The position numbers and the translations under genes were made by a program. 64,000 bases of DNA from Candidatus Bathyarchaeia archaeon (GTDB lineage: Archaea; Thermoproteota; Bathyarchaeia; Bathyarchaeales; Bathycorpusculaceae). Shown in pieces: positions 50,417 through 56,289 of the stretch (within the stretch, counting starts at the first letter, position 1; each line of letters starts with the position of its first letter). Below the pieces are notes generated by a model, which was given only the letters and a program-made list of their open reading frames with translations, did not search any database and had not been told where the DNA came from. Location: positions 7,186 through 71,185 of the forward strand of contig JAVYWL010000002.1 of NCBI GenBank assembly GCA_038727135.1, written 5' to 3'.

Positions 50417-51073
50417 ATGATCTCCGAAGAGCACAAGAAACACTTGCGGGAAGAGTTTGTTGGAAAGCTTCAAAATCCAGTTAGGCTTGTTGTTTTTACG
50501 CAAGAATATGAATGTCCTTATTGTGCGGAGACGCGGAAGCTCATTGAGGAGTTAGCCACCTTAAGTGATAAGATAGGCGTAGAAGTTTACGATTTTGTGG
50601 CTGACACGGATAAGGCTAGGGCTTATAGCATCGACAAGGTTCCAGCGGTGGCCATTATTGGCGAGAAGGATTTTGGTTTGCGGTTTTATGGTTTGCCCTA
50701 TGGTTATGAGTTTGGGACCCTTGTGGAGGGCATAATCGCTGTTTCCCGCGGAAAGTCGGATATTTCTGAAAGTGTTAGAGAGAGGCTTAAAGGCGTTAAG
50801 GCGCCGGTGCACATTCAAGTTTTTGTGACGTTGACTTGTCCCTATTGCCCCTCTGTTGCTAGTCTAGCCTACAAGTTTGCTGTTGAAAGTGACTTTGTTA
50901 GGGCTGACGTTATTGATGTGAGCGAGTTTCCACATATTGGGCATAAGTACGCTGTTATGGGCGTTCCCAAAACAGTCATAAATGAGAAGGTGGAGTTTGT
51001 TGGGGCTGTCCCGGAAGAAATTTTCTTAGAGCATGTTTTGCTTGCCGCCCGCCGCCCAGAATACGTCTTATAG
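50417..51073 (+). CDS. Protein disulfide oxidoreductase (two thioredoxin-fold units, glutaredoxin-like)
   Basis: Two CPYC active sites (ECPYCAE, TCPYCPS) about 110 aa apart, as in archaeal PDO. Confidence 0.8.
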   Translation: MISEEHKKHLREEFVGKLQNPVRLVVFTQEYECPYCAETRKLIEELATLSDKIGVEVYDFVADTDKARAYSIDKVPAVAIIGEKDFGLRFYGLPYGYEFGTLVEGIIAVSRGKSDISESVRERLKGVKAPVHIQVFVTLTCPYCPSVASLAYKFAVESDFVRADVIDVSEFPHIGHKYAVMGVPKTVINEKVEFVGAVPEEIFLEHVLLAARRPEYVL

Positions 51074-51119
51074 CATTTAAGTGGTGTGAAATCTGGCTGG
51101 CAAAAAAGAGTTTTTAACT

Positions 51120-51896
51120 TTGGTTTTCGTTTACAGCGGCGAATTTGCAGAGCGTGTGATAAGGAATCTTATAAATGACCCTAGTTTCTGCAATTCTTGC
51201 GGCTTGTATTGCGACTCTTGTAAGTATGGCGTTTACAGTTATGTGCGGAACATCCGCGCTGCTATAGAGCTTCCGAAGCCTTCGGATTTGCCAGCCTTCA
51301 TAGACAAGCCAGAAGAATACATGCCCAGGAGTGTTCCGCGGGCAGATTTGTGTGTGGCTTCCGGCTTACACAAGGACCTGCTTTTGGAACTGCCAACCCA
51401 CATTACGAAGGCTGGTGTTAAAGGCTTAATTGTGCCCGTTGAAGATTTTAACGAGGTTCCATCAGGTTTGAGGAAGCAGTTGGAAGAGCGCTGTCTTGAG
51501 CTTGGCTTGGAGTGTGCTTTTCCGAAGCCCTTCTGTTCGCTAGAGCCATCTAAGGATAAGCCTTTCATCTCTCGCTTTGTAGAGGAGTTGGGGGTTGGGC
51601 GTCCAAAACTTGAGATTTCCACTGCAAGGCGAGGTGGACGTGAGGTTGTGGAGACAGCTATTGTTAGGCGGAGTGCTCCATGCGGCTCAACATGGTATGT
51701 GGCGAGAAAGCTCATAGGCGTTGAAACAAAACGAGAAATCTTATACGATGCAATTGCGAAGGCTCATCATAGCTATCCATGCACGGCGACAATGAACGTT
51801 GATCCAGAGGTTAAGGAGCCAATTCTCCACATAGGCGGCTACATAATAAGGGAGGAAGTAGAAAAAGCACTGGAAAAGGCTGGATGTACGACTTAA
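51120..51896 (+). CDS. DUF166-like Cys-rich protein
   Basis: 258 aa with FCNSCGLYCDSC. Family assignment is from memory. TTG start. Confidence 0.5.
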   Translation: MVFVYSGEFAERVIRNLINDPSFCNSCGLYCDSCKYGVYSYVRNIRAAIELPKPSDLPAFIDKPEEYMPRSVPRADLCVASGLHKDLLLELPTHITKAGVKGLIVPVEDFNEVPSGLRKQLEERCLELGLECAFPKPFCSLEPSKDKPFISRFVEELGVGRPKLEISTARRGGREVVETAIVRRSAPCGSTWYVARKLIGVETKREILYDAIAKAHHSYPCTATMNVDPEVKEPILHIGGYIIREEVEKALEKAGCTT

Positions 51897-52303
51897 CTTT
51901 TCTCTAAACGCTCGATAAGGTCTAGGACTTTGGCTTTTATGGCATCTCGAATTTTTCTGGCTTCGTCTAGTGGCATTTTGGCTGGGTCTGGCATGTTCCA
52001 CTCTTCCACGTGCCTTGCGTAAACTACTGGGCAGAGGGAGCCGCTGCAGACTATTATGGCTACTTCAGCCTTCTCCTGAAGCTCCCTCGTCATAATTTGA
52101 GGTTTTTTGTGGCTTATGTCTATACCCTCTTCAAGCATGAGTCGGACAGCGTTTGGATGAACCCTTTCAGCTGGTTTTAAGCCAGCACTCACGGCTTTCC
52201 AGCCACTTAGCGCATACTTGTTAAAGTAGGCTTCGGCAATCTGGCTCCTAAAACTATTCTCAACACAAACAAACAAGACGGTTTTCAAACTATCCATCTT
52301 CAT
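51893..52303 (-). CDS. Low-molecular-weight phosphotyrosine phosphatase / ArsC-type arsenate reductase
   Basis: CX5R(S) P-loop VLFVCVENSFRSQ. Start set at MKMDSLKT; the upstream ORF extension lacks homology-like features. Confidence 0.75.
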   Translation of the reverse strand: MKMDSLKTVLFVCVENSFRSQIAEAYFNKYALSGWKAVSAGLKPAERVHPNAVRLMLEEGIDISHKKPQIMTRELQEKAEVAIIVCSGSLCPVVYARHVEEWNMPDPAKMPLDEARKIRDAIKAKVLDLIERLEKS

Positions 52304-52373
52304 GGGCTGATGTTTTAACACATCTTCATCCACACGATGCGGCAGTGAAGATTTAATTATACCGTAAATTGTC

Positions 52374-53279
52374 CTAGCGATTTGAATATAAGCTTTGGAT
52401 GATCGCATCACGCATCTCCTTAAAATTCCAATCAGAAACTCCATCTAAGAAGTCGCATCCATGAATTCTCCATTCATTTGGGTCGAGCTCAAACTTTCGA
52501 ACAGAACATCGCTGTCGGGCGTTAAGCATAGCGTTTATCAATTCATTTAATTCCATTTTGATTTTGTCTTTGCCTTTAAAATCAAGCCAAGGTTTTATGC
52601 CGTTAGTAGAAATTTCTATAAATGTGACTGGCAAAAAATCCTCAATTTTCCTTACACTAGAAATGCGAACGTAAGATAATTTTTCTTGGCATGACTTTAA
52701 GCATTCTTTAAGTATTGCAATTCTAACTAGAGAACCGAAATCCGTTACTAAGTCACGAAGCTGACCTAGTTGCAAAATCATATTCGAATGAAATTTAGTG
52801 CAAGAGTTTTGATTTATGTATTGCTCGTATCCTGTTGGAAAATCGTCGTAGCGCGGAATAAATATGAAGGTTATCGAAACCTTTGGAAGGTATCGTAAGT
52901 ATATGGCAATTAAAAAAGATAATAGCATTAAGACCAAAGCCAGAAGCATTAACTGTAAATTATTTAAGATTATTGGGACGCCAAAACCTAGATTTACAGC
53001 CAAGTTTCCTAACACTCCTACCCAAGCAGCGAAAATCCAACCCATTACAGCCTTTTGTTTCTCAGAGAATAACTCTACAAATCTATTAATATCCGCAAGC
53101 TCCCTTCGGTAAAATTCCATGATTGTTTCTGTTTCTTTACTTAAATCAAGTTTTTGATCATGCTGTTTGAGGATTCCAGAAGGTAAATAGGGCCATGTGT
53201 TAATCTGTAAAACATCATTCGCCACAAATTCTTGCCAAGTTAACTGTTTTAATGGTTTTCCCATCATGTATAACTTCAT
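52374..53279 (-). CDS. Hypothetical membrane protein (AT-rich orphan)
   Basis: 301 aa with two or three central hydrophobic helices. No motif recognised. Confidence 0.45.
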   Translation of the reverse strand: MKLYMMGKPLKQLTWQEFVANDVLQINTWPYLPSGILKQHDQKLDLSKETETIMEFYRRELADINRFVELFSEKQKAVMGWIFAAWVGVLGNLAVNLGFGVPIILNNLQLMLLALVLMLLSFLIAIYLRYLPKVSITFIFIPRYDDFPTGYEQYINQNSCTKFHSNMILQLGQLRDLVTDFGSLVRIAILKECLKSCQEKLSYVRISSVRKIEDFLPVTFIEISTNGIKPWLDFKGKDKIKMELNELINAMLNARQRCSVRKFELDPNEWRIHGCDFLDGVSDWNFKEMRDAIIQSLYSNR

Positions 53280-53377: not shown

Positions 53378-54613
53378 TCAGCCTTCCCAGTCTAAGAGTC
53401 TTTTTTCGCCTTCGATCTTCTTTATGTCTGTTATGTCTTGGGAAACTTCCATTGTTCCCAAATATTTGCCGTCCTTGTCTCTAACCGCGAAGTATCTTAT
53501 GTGGATTAGGCGGTCTCCCATTTGAATCCAGAATTCAGCCACATCTCTTTCGCCTTTCTTGAAGGCTTCTAGGATTCTGTTGACCACGTGGACGCTTTTC
53601 TGAGGGTGGCAAAGCTGAACCTTTCTGCCCAAAATAGCCTTCGTCCTCACGAATATGCGTTTATCCGCCTTGCTAAAGTATTTGACGGCGTCATCCTTAT
53701 CCACGAAGGTTATGTCCACTGGCAGCGTGTTCAAAATAGCCTCAATCTCCTCTTTCGTTAAAGAGCCTGTTTCAAATTGTATTGTGCCTTCTGGCATAGG
53801 TTTCTCCTCGGCTGCTGGTTTTTCAAGAGTTTTGGCTGGTTTGGCTATTAAGTGTTCCGGGGTGAAGCAGCAATATCCAATTTCGTCAAAATCCGCCCTT
53901 ATAGTGGACCATTCTTGCTCTGTGACAACGCGCTGGGCTGCCGGAAACAGAATGTTGTTCTCCTTGTAAATGTGGCTGTTAAGCATATCGCCCACGGCCT
54001 TTGCTAGTTCGCTAAGCTGCCTCTTAAAATCTGAAAAGTTCATTTTTGCGGCGTTCTCGATTAAGGCTTTGAGCTGCTGCTTCTTTTCCCTAACCTGGTT
54101 GTGCTCCATCCACATTATTGCAGGGGGCTCACTTATACCATGTCTTTCCAAGACTGGGAATAGCGCGTTTTCCTCCCTCAAATAGTGCTTTTCAGCGTCT
54201 AAAAGCTCATCCGCCACATGCCTCAGCTGTGACAGTTCTCCAGCCACCGCATCTGGGCTTTCGGCTTTTTGCACTTTTTCAACCAAGACGTTAAGCTTCT
54301 CGGCTATTTGCTGAATCATTTTATGCTCTTCTAAAAGTATGCCAATGGGACTGGTTGGGGCAACCTCAACCTTCTGTTTTTCTAACTGCTCCCTAAAAAT
54401 CGCCAAGTGAACATCGCAAAGTCTCTGAAGCTCCTCTCTTGATACACCTTCGCTTACGAGTTCCTGTTCAATTTTAGCTATTTCAAGCGAGCTCACGCCC
54501 TCAAGAAACTGTCTAAAACGCTCCTTAACCTGTTCGGGTGGGGCGCCAGCATGCAACTGCCTTAAAATTTCTTTTAAAACCTTCTTCCGCTCTTCTTCTG
54601 TCACTCCACCCAT
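53378..54613 (-). CDS. DUF438 / hemerythrin-like / PAS domain protein
   Basis: N-terminal DUF438-like helix bundle, HHE-type hemerythrin repeats (EEHKMI..., HNQVRE...) and a C-terminal PAS-like region. 1 nt downstream of fprA. Confidence 0.7.
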   Translation of the reverse strand: MGGVTEEERKKVLKEILRQLHAGAPPEQVKERFRQFLEGVSSLEIAKIEQELVSEGVSREELQRLCDVHLAIFREQLEKQKVEVAPTSPIGILLEEHKMIQQIAEKLNVLVEKVQKAESPDAVAGELSQLRHVADELLDAEKHYLREENALFPVLERHGISEPPAIMWMEHNQVREKKQQLKALIENAAKMNFSDFKRQLSELAKAVGDMLNSHIYKENNILFPAAQRVVTEQEWSTIRADFDEIGYCCFTPEHLIAKPAKTLEKPAAEEKPMPEGTIQFETGSLTKEEIEAILNTLPVDITFVDKDDAVKYFSKADKRIFVRTKAILGRKVQLCHPQKSVHVVNRILEAFKKGERDVAEFWIQMGDRLIHIRYFAVRDKDGKYLGTMEVSQDITDIKKIEGEKRLLDWEG

Positions 54614-54614
54614 T

Positions 54615-55805
54615 TTAGGTGCCTCCTTCTAAAATTTTCTTGGCTAATGCTTTCCCAAGCTCCACTATGCGCTTCATGCTCTCGTCTGTTGGCGGTCCAT
54701 TAATTTCTAGCGCACCGATAACCTCGATTTTAAAGTCGCCAAGTATTTCTTGAATTTGTCGTATTGCGCCTCCACCCCAACCATAAGAGCTTAAGACAAC
54801 AGCGAATTTTGTTGGTGGACGCAAAGCCTTGAAAAGGTATGTGGCATAAACAGCCAATGGATGGGCTCCGCCCAAAACTGTTGGTGCACCAAGCACTATG
54901 GCTCTTGAATCCACAAGGTCTTTGGCTAAATCGCCAACATCAGTCACTGCTAAGTTGTGGAAGGCTAATTCGATGCCTTCCGATGCTAGTGTTTCAGCCA
55001 TCTGCTTAACCATGGCATCTGTGCTGCTCCACATACTTACATAGGCTATTGTCGCCTTCGCTCGCGTTTCGCCAACCGCCCAACGCCTATAAGCGTTTAA
55101 AATAAGCTCTGGCTTTCTATGGATGGGACCATGGCTAGGCGCTATCATTCTAATTTTTAGGTTGGCGATTTTTTCTAGGGCTTTCTGTGCCATAGCCCTG
55201 AAAGGCATCATTATCTCGCCCCAATAACGCTGGGCGTGGACAAGCAAGTCCTCAATTTCGTCACTGTAGACGCCTCCAGCCATGTGGGCGCCGAAAAAGT
55301 CACATGGGAAAAGTATTCCATCTTCTTCCAAGTATGTGAACGTTGTTTCTGGCCAATGGAGCATAGGCGCCTCAATAAAGCGCAGGTTTTTGTCGCCTAG
55401 ACTTATGGCCTCATTGTCAGCTACAACCTTAATTCGCTCTTGTGGAACGTGATAATAAACTTGAGCCATTTTTGCGCCTCTGCCAGTAGCCACTAGTTTA
55501 GCTTTCGATGCGATTTTCATTATGTGGGGTATGGCGCCAGCGTGGTCTGGCTCCGCATGATTCATGACAACGTAATCAATTTCTTCTGGTTTTGCCATGT
55601 TGCGGATTTTATCTTCCAAATCTTTTTCGAAGCCCGGATTTACAGTGTCTATTAAGGCTTTCCCATCGCTGCCAATGATGAGGTAAGCGTTATAGGATGT
55701 GCCTTTTGGAAGCGGGATTAGGGCGTCGAAAATTCTGCGGTTCCAATCTCTTACGCCTACCCAGTAAACGTTTTCCGCTATTTTCAGAACGTTTCTTTCA
55801 GTCAC
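54615..55805 (-). CDS. fprA: Flavodiiron protein (FprA; MBL-like diiron domain + flavodoxin domain)
   Basis: NHAEPDHAGA diiron motif and a C-terminal flavodoxin-like domain (IAYVSMWSSTD). GTG start. Confidence 0.85.
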   Translation of the reverse strand: MTERNVLKIAENVYWVGVRDWNRRIFDALIPLPKGTSYNAYLIIGSDGKALIDTVNPGFEKDLEDKIRNMAKPEEIDYVVMNHAEPDHAGAIPHIMKIASKAKLVATGRGAKMAQVYYHVPQERIKVVADNEAISLGDKNLRFIEAPMLHWPETTFTYLEEDGILFPCDFFGAHMAGGVYSDEIEDLLVHAQRYWGEIMMPFRAMAQKALEKIANLKIRMIAPSHGPIHRKPELILNAYRRWAVGETRAKATIAYVSMWSSTDAMVKQMAETLASEGIELAFHNLAVTDVGDLAKDLVDSRAIVLGAPTVLGGAHPLAVYATYLFKALRPPTKFAVVLSSYGWGGGAIRQIQEILGDFKIEVIGALEINGPPTDESMKRIVELGKALAKKILEGGT

Positions 55806-55815
55806 ACGCGTTCAC

Positions 55816-55837
55816 CTTTATTACAATTGTAATAAAG
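55816..55837. promoter_or_regulatory. Perfect 22-bp palindrome CTTTATTACAATTGTAATAAAG between fprA and the divergent regulator gene
   Basis: The sequence equals its own reverse complement. It lies 11 nt from the fprA GTG and next to the AT-rich TATATTTAT element. Confidence 0.55.
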
Positions 55838-55881
55838 TATATTTATGCCTTTCCCCACAATATAACAAGGAGGAATGAAAA

Positions 55882-56289
55882 ATGCTACTGCCATGCGAGG
55901 TCGCCGTGAAAAGCCTACTCCCACCAGTAAGGGCAGCACTAGCCAAACAACTAATGACAAAACACAACCTAAAACAGATGGAGACAGCAAAACTGCTGGG
56001 CGTAAGCCAACCTGCCATAAGCCTTTACAACAAGAAAATGCGGGGAAAAGCCCTAGACCTGGAAAAAGACAAAGAAATTAAAAGGCTAATTGATGAGTTG
56101 GCGGATTCCCTGGCAAAGGAGGGCTTATCTCACAAGGATTTTACACTAAAGTTTTGTGAAATCTGCAAAGTCGCTCGTGCAAAAGGTTTGTTGTGCAATA
56201 TGCATAAGGCTTTAGATCCAACATTTGAAACTGAAAAATGTGGATTATGCATGTCTACAGAACTAAAATGTCTAACTCAAAACCCTTAA
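55882..56289 (+). CDS. HTH transcriptional regulator with Cys-rich C-terminus
   Basis: HTH QMETAKLLGVSQPAISLY. C-terminal CEIC...C...CGLC. ATG 7 nt after AAGGAGGA. Confidence 0.6.
   Translation: MLLPCEVAVKSLLPPVRAALAKQLMTKHNLKQMETAKLLGVSQPAISLYNKKMRGKALDLEKDKEIKRLIDELADSLAKEGLSHKDFTLKFCEICKVARAKGLLCNMHKALDPTFETEKCGLCMSTELKCLTQNP

Follow-up and report, generated by a model that had tools for sequence, protein, structure and literature searches.

Described systems and their relation to the present locus

As of 2022, only three archaeal transcription factors had been described as thiol switches, namely MsvR, SurR and OxsR (PMC9426492). The closest of these in layout to the system that we consider here is MsvR, which is confined to methanogens (MTH1349 of M. 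thermautotrophicus and MA1458 of Methanosarcina acetivorans) and which is a protein of about 250 amino acids that combines an ArsR-type helix-turn-helix (HTH) with a V4R domain and carries three conserved cysteines. It is encoded divergently from a flavodiiron (fpaA) operon and regulates itself as well as its neighbour; the binding boxes of MthMsvR, of the form TTCGN7-9CGAA, overlap the fpaA transcription start in PfpaA and the BRE/TATA in PmsvR, and it is the reduced protein that represses (PMC3729527). SurR of Pyrococcus, which belongs to the ArsR family, and OxsR of Haloferax, a member of the TrmB family, are both global regulators with many sites, the effect of which is set by the position of each site relative to the BRE/TATA, the OxsR motif being located 5' of these elements (PMC9426492).

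Phage and bacterial repressors of the Cro/CI type (XRE, PF01381) bind as dimers to short palindromes in which the half-sites lie about one helical turn apart, and regulate themselves from divergent promoters. A further point of comparison comes from NsrR and IscR, small dimeric repressors of the Rrf2 family, whose palindromes overlap the promoters that they control. Proteins of this family have a winged-helix domain and three cysteine ligands placed close together near the C-terminus. Their targets are genes for NO/O2 detoxification and iron-centre repair (hmp, ytfE/RIC) or the isc/suf operons.

Here, we describe a locus from a member of the Bathyarchaeia in which a small cysteine-rich HTH regulator is encoded divergently from the flavodiiron gene fprA. 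Bathyarchaeia are abundant and mostly uncultured and, to our knowledge, gene regulation in this group is experimentally a blank. The kind of system is a familiar one: in methanogens, MsvR is a local sensor that regulates itself and has a palindromic operator at a divergent flavodiiron promoter. As with MsvR, the regulator contains cysteines and diverges from a flavodiiron gene, an arrangement found in 69 of 80 genomes that matches the MsvR-fpaA layout, self-regulation is proposed for it too, and its placement relative to the BRE/TATA, as judged from promoter motifs, is comparable; the resemblance is one of function and not of homology. In contrast to MsvR, the protein has 135 amino acids, an XRE/Cro-like HTH, no V4R domain and a different operator, ATTACAATTGTAAT, and the two have no sequence relationship. 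An earlier note on this DNA had proposed an analogue of the MsvR system built from a different regulator family, and both the analogous layout, as predicted from promoter motifs, and the different family hold, with the proviso that the protein is not itself an MsvR: a V4R domain is absent from the Pfam matches listed for the query and for 17 relatives, the 135-residue protein is predicted to be all-helical, and the spacer carries ATTACAATTGTAAT and no TTCG...CGAA boxes.

The other comparisons are looser. With NsrR and IscR the locus shares the nature of its targets, a flavodiiron protein and a RIC-like hemerythrin, but the regulator has no Rrf2 domain and a different cysteine spacing, and any cluster that it might carry is hypothetical. 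It shares its HTH type, its presumed dimeric binding to a palindrome with half-sites about a helical turn apart and its proposed self-regulation from a divergent promoter with the Cro/CI-type repressors, from which it differs in an HTH_3 match that falls below the Pfam cut-off and in a two-module cysteine domain at the C-terminus. Unlike the global SurR and OxsR, it is XRE-like and has one local site.

The palindrome and its neighbouring genes

Within the window, by which we mean the whole stretch of 64,000 nucleotides that was analysed, fprA and the regulator gene are divergently oriented and separated by a spacer of 76 nt, the first base of the fprA GTG start lying at 55805 on the minus strand and the regulator ATG at 55882. 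The spacer contains a perfect palindrome, CTTTATTACAATTGTAATAAAG (22 bp, 55816-55837), which reads as its own reverse complement, is separated from the GTG by 10 bases (55806-55815) and is abutted at its right end by TATATTTAT (55838-55846). The earlier note had reported the perfect self-complementarity of these 22 bp, their proximity to the fprA start and their contact with a TATA-like element in a 76-nt spacer, and the sequence bears out all of this.

The 22-mer is the second-longest perfect palindrome of the 1.55-Mb genome, in which perfect palindromes of 12, 14, 16, 18, 20 and 22 bp number 264, 59, 14, 6, 3 and 1, respectively, with one further 48-mer. The shorter classes track random expectation (264 observed at 12 bp against about 284 expected), and since about 0.4 palindromes of at least 22 bp would be expected by chance genome-wide, and about 0.015 in the window, a palindrome of this length is by itself weak evidence. 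As these chance counts are not decisive, the case for function rests on conservation.

To the left of the palindrome, fprA (54615..55805, minus strand) encodes a class-A flavodiiron protein with metallo-beta-lactamase-like and flavodoxin domains and no rubredoxin domain (Pfam matches to ODP at 1.8e-28, Lactamase_B and Flavodoxin_1), which scores 273 bits against the NCBIfam flavorubredoxin model, below the cut-off of that model. The following gene (53378..54613, minus strand) encodes a protein that has Pfam matches to DUF438, hemerythrin and PAS_10 and is weakly similar to iron-centre repair proteins of the RIC/YtfE family. This gene starts a single base beyond the stop codon of fprA, which gives the pair the look of one operon, and the DUF438-hemerythrin gene also follows fprA in most orthologous loci. 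With a flavodiiron O2/NO reductase and a RIC-like hemerythrin as the usual targets, the genes point to oxidative or nitrosative stress. The neighbourhood does vary among orthologues of the present regulator (group A below). Some, at 49-57% identity, diverge from arsR-acr3 and not from fprA (loci L026, L029 and L030), divergence from a cysteine-synthase operon, with genes for a zinc-ribbon protein of small size and for a 4Fe-4S protein, also occurs, and in L148 the regulator gene overlaps the start of a copA-like gene for an HMA-type P-type ATPase, genes of this type also occurring near the regulators of L015 and P0311. Given the arsR-acr3, copA-like ATPase and cysteine-synthase neighbours, the signal need not be O2 and may be broader.

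Conservation of the probable operator core

The conserved unit, (T)ATTACAATTGTAAT(A), is the inner 14-16 bp of the 22-mer. Its core, ATTACAATTGTAAT (55820..55833), consists of two half-sites of 5 bp each, ATTAC and GTAAT, with a centre-to-centre distance of 9 bp, which is what a dimeric HTH protein would call for. The outer 4 bp behave differently on the two sides: the left-hand CTTT is genus-specific, with no conservation outside the genus, whereas the right-hand AAAG is conserved, probably because it belongs to the promoter.

The regulator protein served as the query against 60 relatives, and of the 30 loci extracted around the best matches, 24 have fprA in the divergent position, with regulator identities down to 53%. 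For a set of 24 diverged loci, defined by a regulator identity of at most 78%, the half-site positions are invariant (10/10), and the loci share on average a pairwise identity of 0.95 in the 14-bp core, 0.87 over AAAG and the TATA box together and 0.76 over GCCTTTC, compared with 0.32-0.40 for the flanks and 0.44 for the third codon positions of the regulator gene. In every orthologous locus, a block of about 34 bp, ATTACAATTGTAAT-AAAG-TATATTTAT-GCCTTTC, which comprises operator, TATA box and BRE, contrasts with flanks that vary.

A second scan, with one genome per species, added 80 further loci from Bathyarchaeia and from Methanomethylicota, Baldrarchaeota and Freyarchaeota. An exact ATTAC-N4-GTAAT lies 60-71 nt before the regulator ATG in 73 of the 80 genomes, and the other seven have a one-mismatch variant in the same place. 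The divergent partner is fprA in 69 genomes and the hemerythrin gene alone in five more. Among orthologous loci, the distance to fprA varies (12-24 nt), while that from the end of the core to the regulator ATG is nearly constant (44-52 nt). Conservation of the palindrome and of the regulator-fprA pairing in related genomes had been set beforehand as a test of the idea, and both are kept across many genera and several phylum-level lineages. At the level of sequence comparison, the alignments show a site under strong purifying selection that is tied to the regulator gene and linked to fprA/hemerythrin.

The regulator as the probable binding protein

The half-site search of the genome that the earlier note had suggested returned two occurrences of ATTAC-N4-GTAAT in total, against 2.7 expected, of which only the one at fprA is intergenic; a single intergenic site fits a dedicated local regulator with a single target. 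Neither the count of half-site pairs in this genome nor the 151 genomes of the order pointed to a regulon that extends past the local genes. Across the 30 loci fetched from those 151 genomes, all ATTACAAT[T/A]GTAAT sites, which have the spacer AAT[T/A], adjoin a regulator orthologue, and sites with other N4 spacers have no regulator nearby and are about as frequent in the 151 genomes as a reversed control.

Comparison with paralogues provides a second line of evidence. Group A, to which the present regulator belongs, has the recognition helix LLGVSQPAISLY and the palindrome ATTACAATTGTAAT, which occurs once and abuts the TATA box. Groups B, C and D each have a conserved palindrome of their own at their own promoter, together with a distinct recognition helix: ATGACATACGTCAT, present twice and abutting the TATA box, with helix LLGISQSAVSKY in group B; TTTAACRCCGTTAAA, likewise present twice and abutting the TATA box, with helix KMELTPAAITQY in group C, which includes a paralogue in this genome; and ATAACNNCGTTAT, downstream of the TATA box, with helix KLGTTQASVSNY in group D. 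The palindrome therefore co-varies with the recognition helix among the groups, which ties each site to the protein encoded beside it.

The palindrome is thus almost certainly the binding site of the adjacent regulator. That some unlinked transcription factor binds it, with the regulator gene merely co-located, we regard as very unlikely, given that the distance between site and regulator gene is fixed though the other neighbour changes, the core site persisting at the regulator even where that neighbour differs from fprA, that this genome has a single such intergenic site, unlike what a global factor would show, and that the differing palindromes of the paralogues match their differing recognition helices. 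A chance occurrence without function could appeal to the roughly 0.4 perfect palindromes of 22 bp or more expected in the genome, and it is on the conservation analysis and not on the palindrome count that we reject it: 80 species genomes conserve the site, with an identity of 0.95 against 0.44 at third codon positions, leaving this explanation a negligible probability.

Predicted promoter geometry

A promoter motif was learned from the regions upstream of the 36 tRNA genes of this genome and takes the form GAAA-N2-3-TATA (TTTAAA-like), that is, a BRE followed by a TATA box. Within the spacer, this motif fits best on the minus strand (GTGGGGAAAGGCATAAAT), at 7.5 bits against a plus-strand maximum of 2.0 bits; the motif is noisy, and 7.5 bits is near the bottom of the range spanned by the tRNA sites (5.6-17). 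The BRE-like element GGAAAGGC (55847..55854, minus strand, directed towards fprA) is marked by this match and by the conservation of GCCTTTC, which is best read as the BRE (GGAAAGG on the minus strand) of a leftward fprA promoter that would use TATATTTAT. The TATA box itself is probably common to both divergent promoters. No good BRE match for the regulator's own promoter was found with the tRNA-derived motif in the 76-nt spacer.

Transcription usually starts about 26 nt from the centre of the TATA box. On this basis, the fprA transcript is predicted to begin at about 55815-55819, with a short leader containing the Shine-Dalgarno-like GGTGA (55812..55816, minus strand, read from the sequence), and the regulator transcript at about 55866-55870, just before the Shine-Dalgarno sequence GGAGG (55869..55873, plus strand; GGAGG or GGAAG in orthologues). 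As the BRE and TATA on the minus strand point towards fprA, the operator would lie between the TATA box and the predicted fprA start, spanning about -1 to -21 of the fprA promoter, which is the classic position of an archaeal repressor. For the rightward promoter, the right arm of the operator together with AAAG would occupy the BRE position, the operator centre being at about -41 relative to the predicted start of the regulator transcript.

The regulator and its cysteine modules

The regulator gene (55882..56289, plus strand) encodes 135 amino acids, comprising an XRE/Cro-like HTH (recognition helix SQPAISLY) and two cysteine modules. Its seven cysteines are C5, C92, C95, C105, C120, C123 and C130, of which all but C130 are invariant among orthologues, and with the near-invariant H108 they form the pattern C5...C92-x2-C95-x9-C105-x2-H108-x11-C120-x2-C123. 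The original description of an HTH protein with five C-terminal cysteines was accurate as to a cysteine-rich HTH protein and missed the invariant N-terminal C5. This residue belongs with C92 and C95 in what we term module A, while C105, H108, C120 and C123 constitute module B. The division follows from residue co-occurrence among 122 distant representatives, in counts that take no account of relatedness: C5 and C92 are both present in 94, both absent in 23 and discordant in 3, with C95 partly following this pair, and C105 and H108 are both present in 107, both absent in 13 and discordant in 2, with C120 and C123 following them. The two modules are lost independently of one another. Module B, with its C-x2-H-x11-C-x2-C spacing, most probably serves as a zinc site of the Cys3His type with a structural role. 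Module A connects the very start of the DNA-binding domain with a CxxC in the C-terminal domain, and is likely to be the sensor.

Assignment of the protein to a known family meets with little success beyond the HTH. Against HTH_3 (PF01381) the regulator scores 16.2 bits, compared with a cut-off of 23; 17 of 18 relatives match the model at E <=1, the best at 5.2e-06, and several homologues carry precomputed PF01381 matches. Its C-terminal half has no Pfam model. The AlphaFold model (pLDDT 82) is all-helical, and a Foldseek search with it against the PDB gave no structure at E < 0.001 (none below 0.47), the best TM-score being 0.34. The ArsR/SmtB family, which is marked by an HTH_5/HTH_20 winged helix, was considered and set aside (HTH_5 at E = 0.11, 12.8 bits against a cut-off of 22), as was the Rrf2 family, the domain of which is absent from the Pfam matches listed for the query and its relatives and the cysteine spacing of which differs. 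A sequence search of the PDB gave only weak HTH matches, of which PagR, over the HTH only, reached E = 0.001, and among the named NCBIfam families there was only a sub-threshold match to PagR.

We treat the regulator as a member of a proposed family, the features of which in this protein are an N-terminal PCE motif, the HTH, an R54-G55 motif and cysteine modules A and B; the cysteine features recur in identical form (CCCCHCC) in 67 of 123 aligned sequences, namely the query and the 122 representatives. A profile search of 1.84 billion representative proteins recovered 2057 relatives at E <=1e-3 and 1029 at E <=1e-10, and the family comprises at least 1000 clusters, counted at 50% identity. Named members come from Marsarchaeota, Nitrososphaerales, Aenigmarchaeota, Promethearchaeia (Asgard archaea), MSBL1 and Bathyarchaeia, and none has an annotation more specific than 'predicted transcriptional regulator' or 'HTH domain protein'. 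Literature searches on the family, on the flavodiiron/DUF438 context and on archaeal Fe-S regulation returned no paper on this regulator family, and within the literature covered we found no description of the family, of its operator code or of its two-module cysteine domain.

A model of regulation and its alternatives

The model that we favour, with a probability of about 0.6 for the whole, is that the palindrome would be the operator of the adjacent regulator, from which both divergent transcripts would be repressed until oxidant, NO or thiol/Fe-S damage releases them. A homodimer of this XRE-like HTH protein, the subgroup being specific to Bathyarchaeia and a few neighbouring lineages, would bind (T)ATTACAATTGTAAT(A). 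At the fprA promoter it would block the recruitment of RNA polymerase, and at its own promoter, where it would sit in the BRE position, it would exclude TFB, so that in the resting state the reduced, metal- or cluster-loaded protein would repress both transcripts. Oxidants, NO or other thiol- or Fe-S-damaging agents would then modify the sensory module of C5, C92 and C95, and the modified regulator would leave the DNA, derepressing both. The repressive sign of this regulation we infer from promoter geometry; for the sensing step (O2, NO, Fe-S or thiol damage) and its cofactor, the invariant cysteines and the functions of the target genes suggest a thiol- or metal-based redox switch.

Three other explanations retain the site and differ in how it would work. 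The same protein at the same site might be an activator that recruits TBP/TFB to its own or to both promoters under stress, which would suit the operator centre some 41 nt upstream of the regulator's predicted start and the weak BRE of that promoter, as expected where transcription depends on an activator, and would have a parallel in factors such as OxsR that activate from motifs 5' of the BRE/TATA (PMC9426492). The operator, however, ends only 4 nt from the TATA box and so extends into the BRE and is not located upstream of that element, for fprA it is downstream of the TATA box in the position of a repressor, the palindrome of group D is likewise downstream of its TATA box, and MsvR, with the same layout, represses (PMC3729527). 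We consider activation unlikely as an account of the system, while for the regulator's own promoter taken separately it is possible that activation rather than repression applies. The signal, again, might be a thiophilic metal or metalloid such as Cu(I) or As(III), sensed through module A, with fprA-hemerythrin as just one lineage-specific target among several. ArsR and CsoR are sensors of this kind, and a site of three cysteines is the classic geometry for As(III)/Cu(I); the orthologues divergent from arsR-acr3 in L026, L029 and L030 and the HMA-type ATPase genes overlapped by the regulator in L148 and near it in L015 and P0311 would also be in keeping with metal sensing. Yet the divergent partner is fprA and/or hemerythrin, with functions related to O2/NO and not to metal efflux, in 74 of 80 genomes, and the ars loci have an ArsR of their own, which makes this a distinctly unlikely reading. 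Finally, the palindrome does fold as RNA into a 9-bp stem (-8.2 kcal/mol, z = -2.06) and might act as a hairpin in the fprA 5' leader, for instance by masking the Shine-Dalgarno sequence. Such a stem would be AU-rich and marginal at 37 C, and weaker still in hot springs, the source of the relatives' assemblies; neither arm shows any change, compensatory or otherwise, and conservation extends to the loop bases; most of the palindrome would stay untranscribed, the predicted fprA start being at its edge; and an Rfam search gave no match, so that a known RNA element is rejected and a hairpin function is highly improbable.

The dual-repression model has the merit of supplying a testable pair, a 135-amino-acid protein and a 14-bp site, with a 76-bp promoter and defined targets, which can be assayed in vitro without culture. 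If it is correct, the regulator would be an addition to the archaeal thiol switches that is structurally unrelated to MsvR, SurR and OxsR, and would show that methanogens and Bathyarchaeia each evolved, separately, a divergently encoded sensor that controls a flavodiiron operon.

The wider family and a possible link to Fe-S metabolism

The neighbours of more distant family members were sampled unsystematically, in ten context look-ups across archaea. They include iscS-iscU (P0311), sufC-sufB (P0348), cysE-cysK (P0339), aminotransferase/desulfurase-like genes with ThiF (P0381) and DtxR-feoAB (P0344, and the group D member of genome G038). The common thread appears to be Fe-S and thiol chemistry, which suggests a role for the family in monitoring the integrity of Fe-S or thiol groups, perhaps by means of a cluster as with the bacterial Rrf2 proteins. 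A systematic check among 60 relatives failed to generalise this link, in that most had no SufB/D match and FeoB was seen beside a member of the protein family only in G038 and G049, two genomes from a single family, so that the Fe-S association rests on the ten look-ups and is to be taken as a lead.

It is therefore a tentative and rather doubtful extension that this large archaeal family consists of XRE-type factors that bear an Fe-S cluster or sense Fe/S status, and that it fills in archaea the role of the bacterial Rrf2 proteins IscR and NsrR and of SufR. Were this true, its subgroups, each with a palindrome of its own, would control iscS-iscU, sufC-sufB, cysteine synthesis and feoAB, and the present subgroup would handle the damage response through flavodiiron protein and RIC-like hemerythrin. 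Our literature searches found no archaeal regulator of Fe-S cluster supply, and the isc, suf, cys and feo neighbours of family members make the regulation of that supply in archaea directly testable.

The remaining contexts are more varied. The neighbours of P0398 have no Pfam matches and are uninformative, as is the TrmB-type regulator found in the one context common to P0308, P0315 and P0325 of Aenigmarchaeota. A gene with a NifU_N domain lies about 2.7 kb from P0399, and the paralogue in this genome has a ParB_N-PALP fusion as its neighbour.

A second family member in the same genome

Besides the 135-aa XRE-like regulator that is divergent from fprA, the genome under study encodes, outside the window, a paralogue with 34% identity to it (minus strand, G000:C4:101338-101706; locus L002/L175). 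Two copies of TTTAACRCCGTTAAA lie directly beside the TATA box of the paralogue's own promoter, and this operator pair is kept across the genus. The divergent neighbour encodes a 574-aa protein in which a ParB_N (sulfiredoxin-like) domain is fused to a PALP (cysteine-synthase-like) one, and a gene for a YkgJ-type CxxCxxCC protein is also found nearby. In two other genomes, two different paralogues of the family, belonging to groups B and D, occur approximately 8.7 kb apart (locus L174, G052:C1:1860938-1869969, and G060:C23:113730-122868). Upstream of the group D gene in these pairs there is again a gene for a YkgJ-type CxxCxxCC protein.

Regulator orthologues with other neighbours

Orthologues of the regulator are also found beside genes other than fprA. 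The neighbour in some genomes encodes a CopA-like P-type ATPase with an HMA domain, and its gene either adjoins that of the regulator or is overlapped by it (L148:3001-5558, L015 and L166); in L148 there is a 4-nt overlap between stop and start codons, which suggests that the two genes are co-transcribed. A 63% identical orthologue, accompanied by ATTACAATAGTAAT, is present on an Asgard chromosome assigned to Freyarchaeota (locus L136, CP147778.1:202990-209358), where the genes divergent from it encode a zinc-ribbon protein and a 4Fe-4S protein; the product of the gene that follows these carries an N-terminal cysteine pattern, CPFCQAGARCDLCSNGPC, that resembles those of anaerobic CO dehydrogenase or hybrid-cluster protein. 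A further orthologue, 62% identical, lies on a contig binned as Firmicutes (locus L119, DFNM01000091.1, titled ‘Firmicutes bacterium UBA3567’), together with the ATTACAATTGTAAT operator in exact form and a Bathyarchaeia-type operon encoding a zinc-ribbon protein, a 4Fe-4S protein and a cysteine synthase; this is probably a mis-binned archaeal contig.

Redox genes, Fe-S assembly and the longest palindrome

Just past the fprA operon, window positions 50417-52444 hold further redox genes, among them one for a protein with two CPYC motifs (50417-51073), which looks like a protein-disulfide oxidoreductase, and one for a low-molecular-weight phosphatase/ArsC-type protein (51893-52444; Pfam LMWPc).

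The SufB/D core (PF01458) had no match in this genome or in any of the 13 others of its genus, and was matched in only 14 of the 61 genomes searched (this one included), although the same model scored a match in each of the 14 control organisms. Fe-S assembly in these archaea may depend on another system or a minimal one.

The longest palindrome of the genome, by a wide margin and far exceeding chance, is a perfect 48-bp one, TATCTCTACACATATATACTTAAATTTAAGTATATATGTGTAGAGATA, which lies outside the window at G000:C3:131447-131494.
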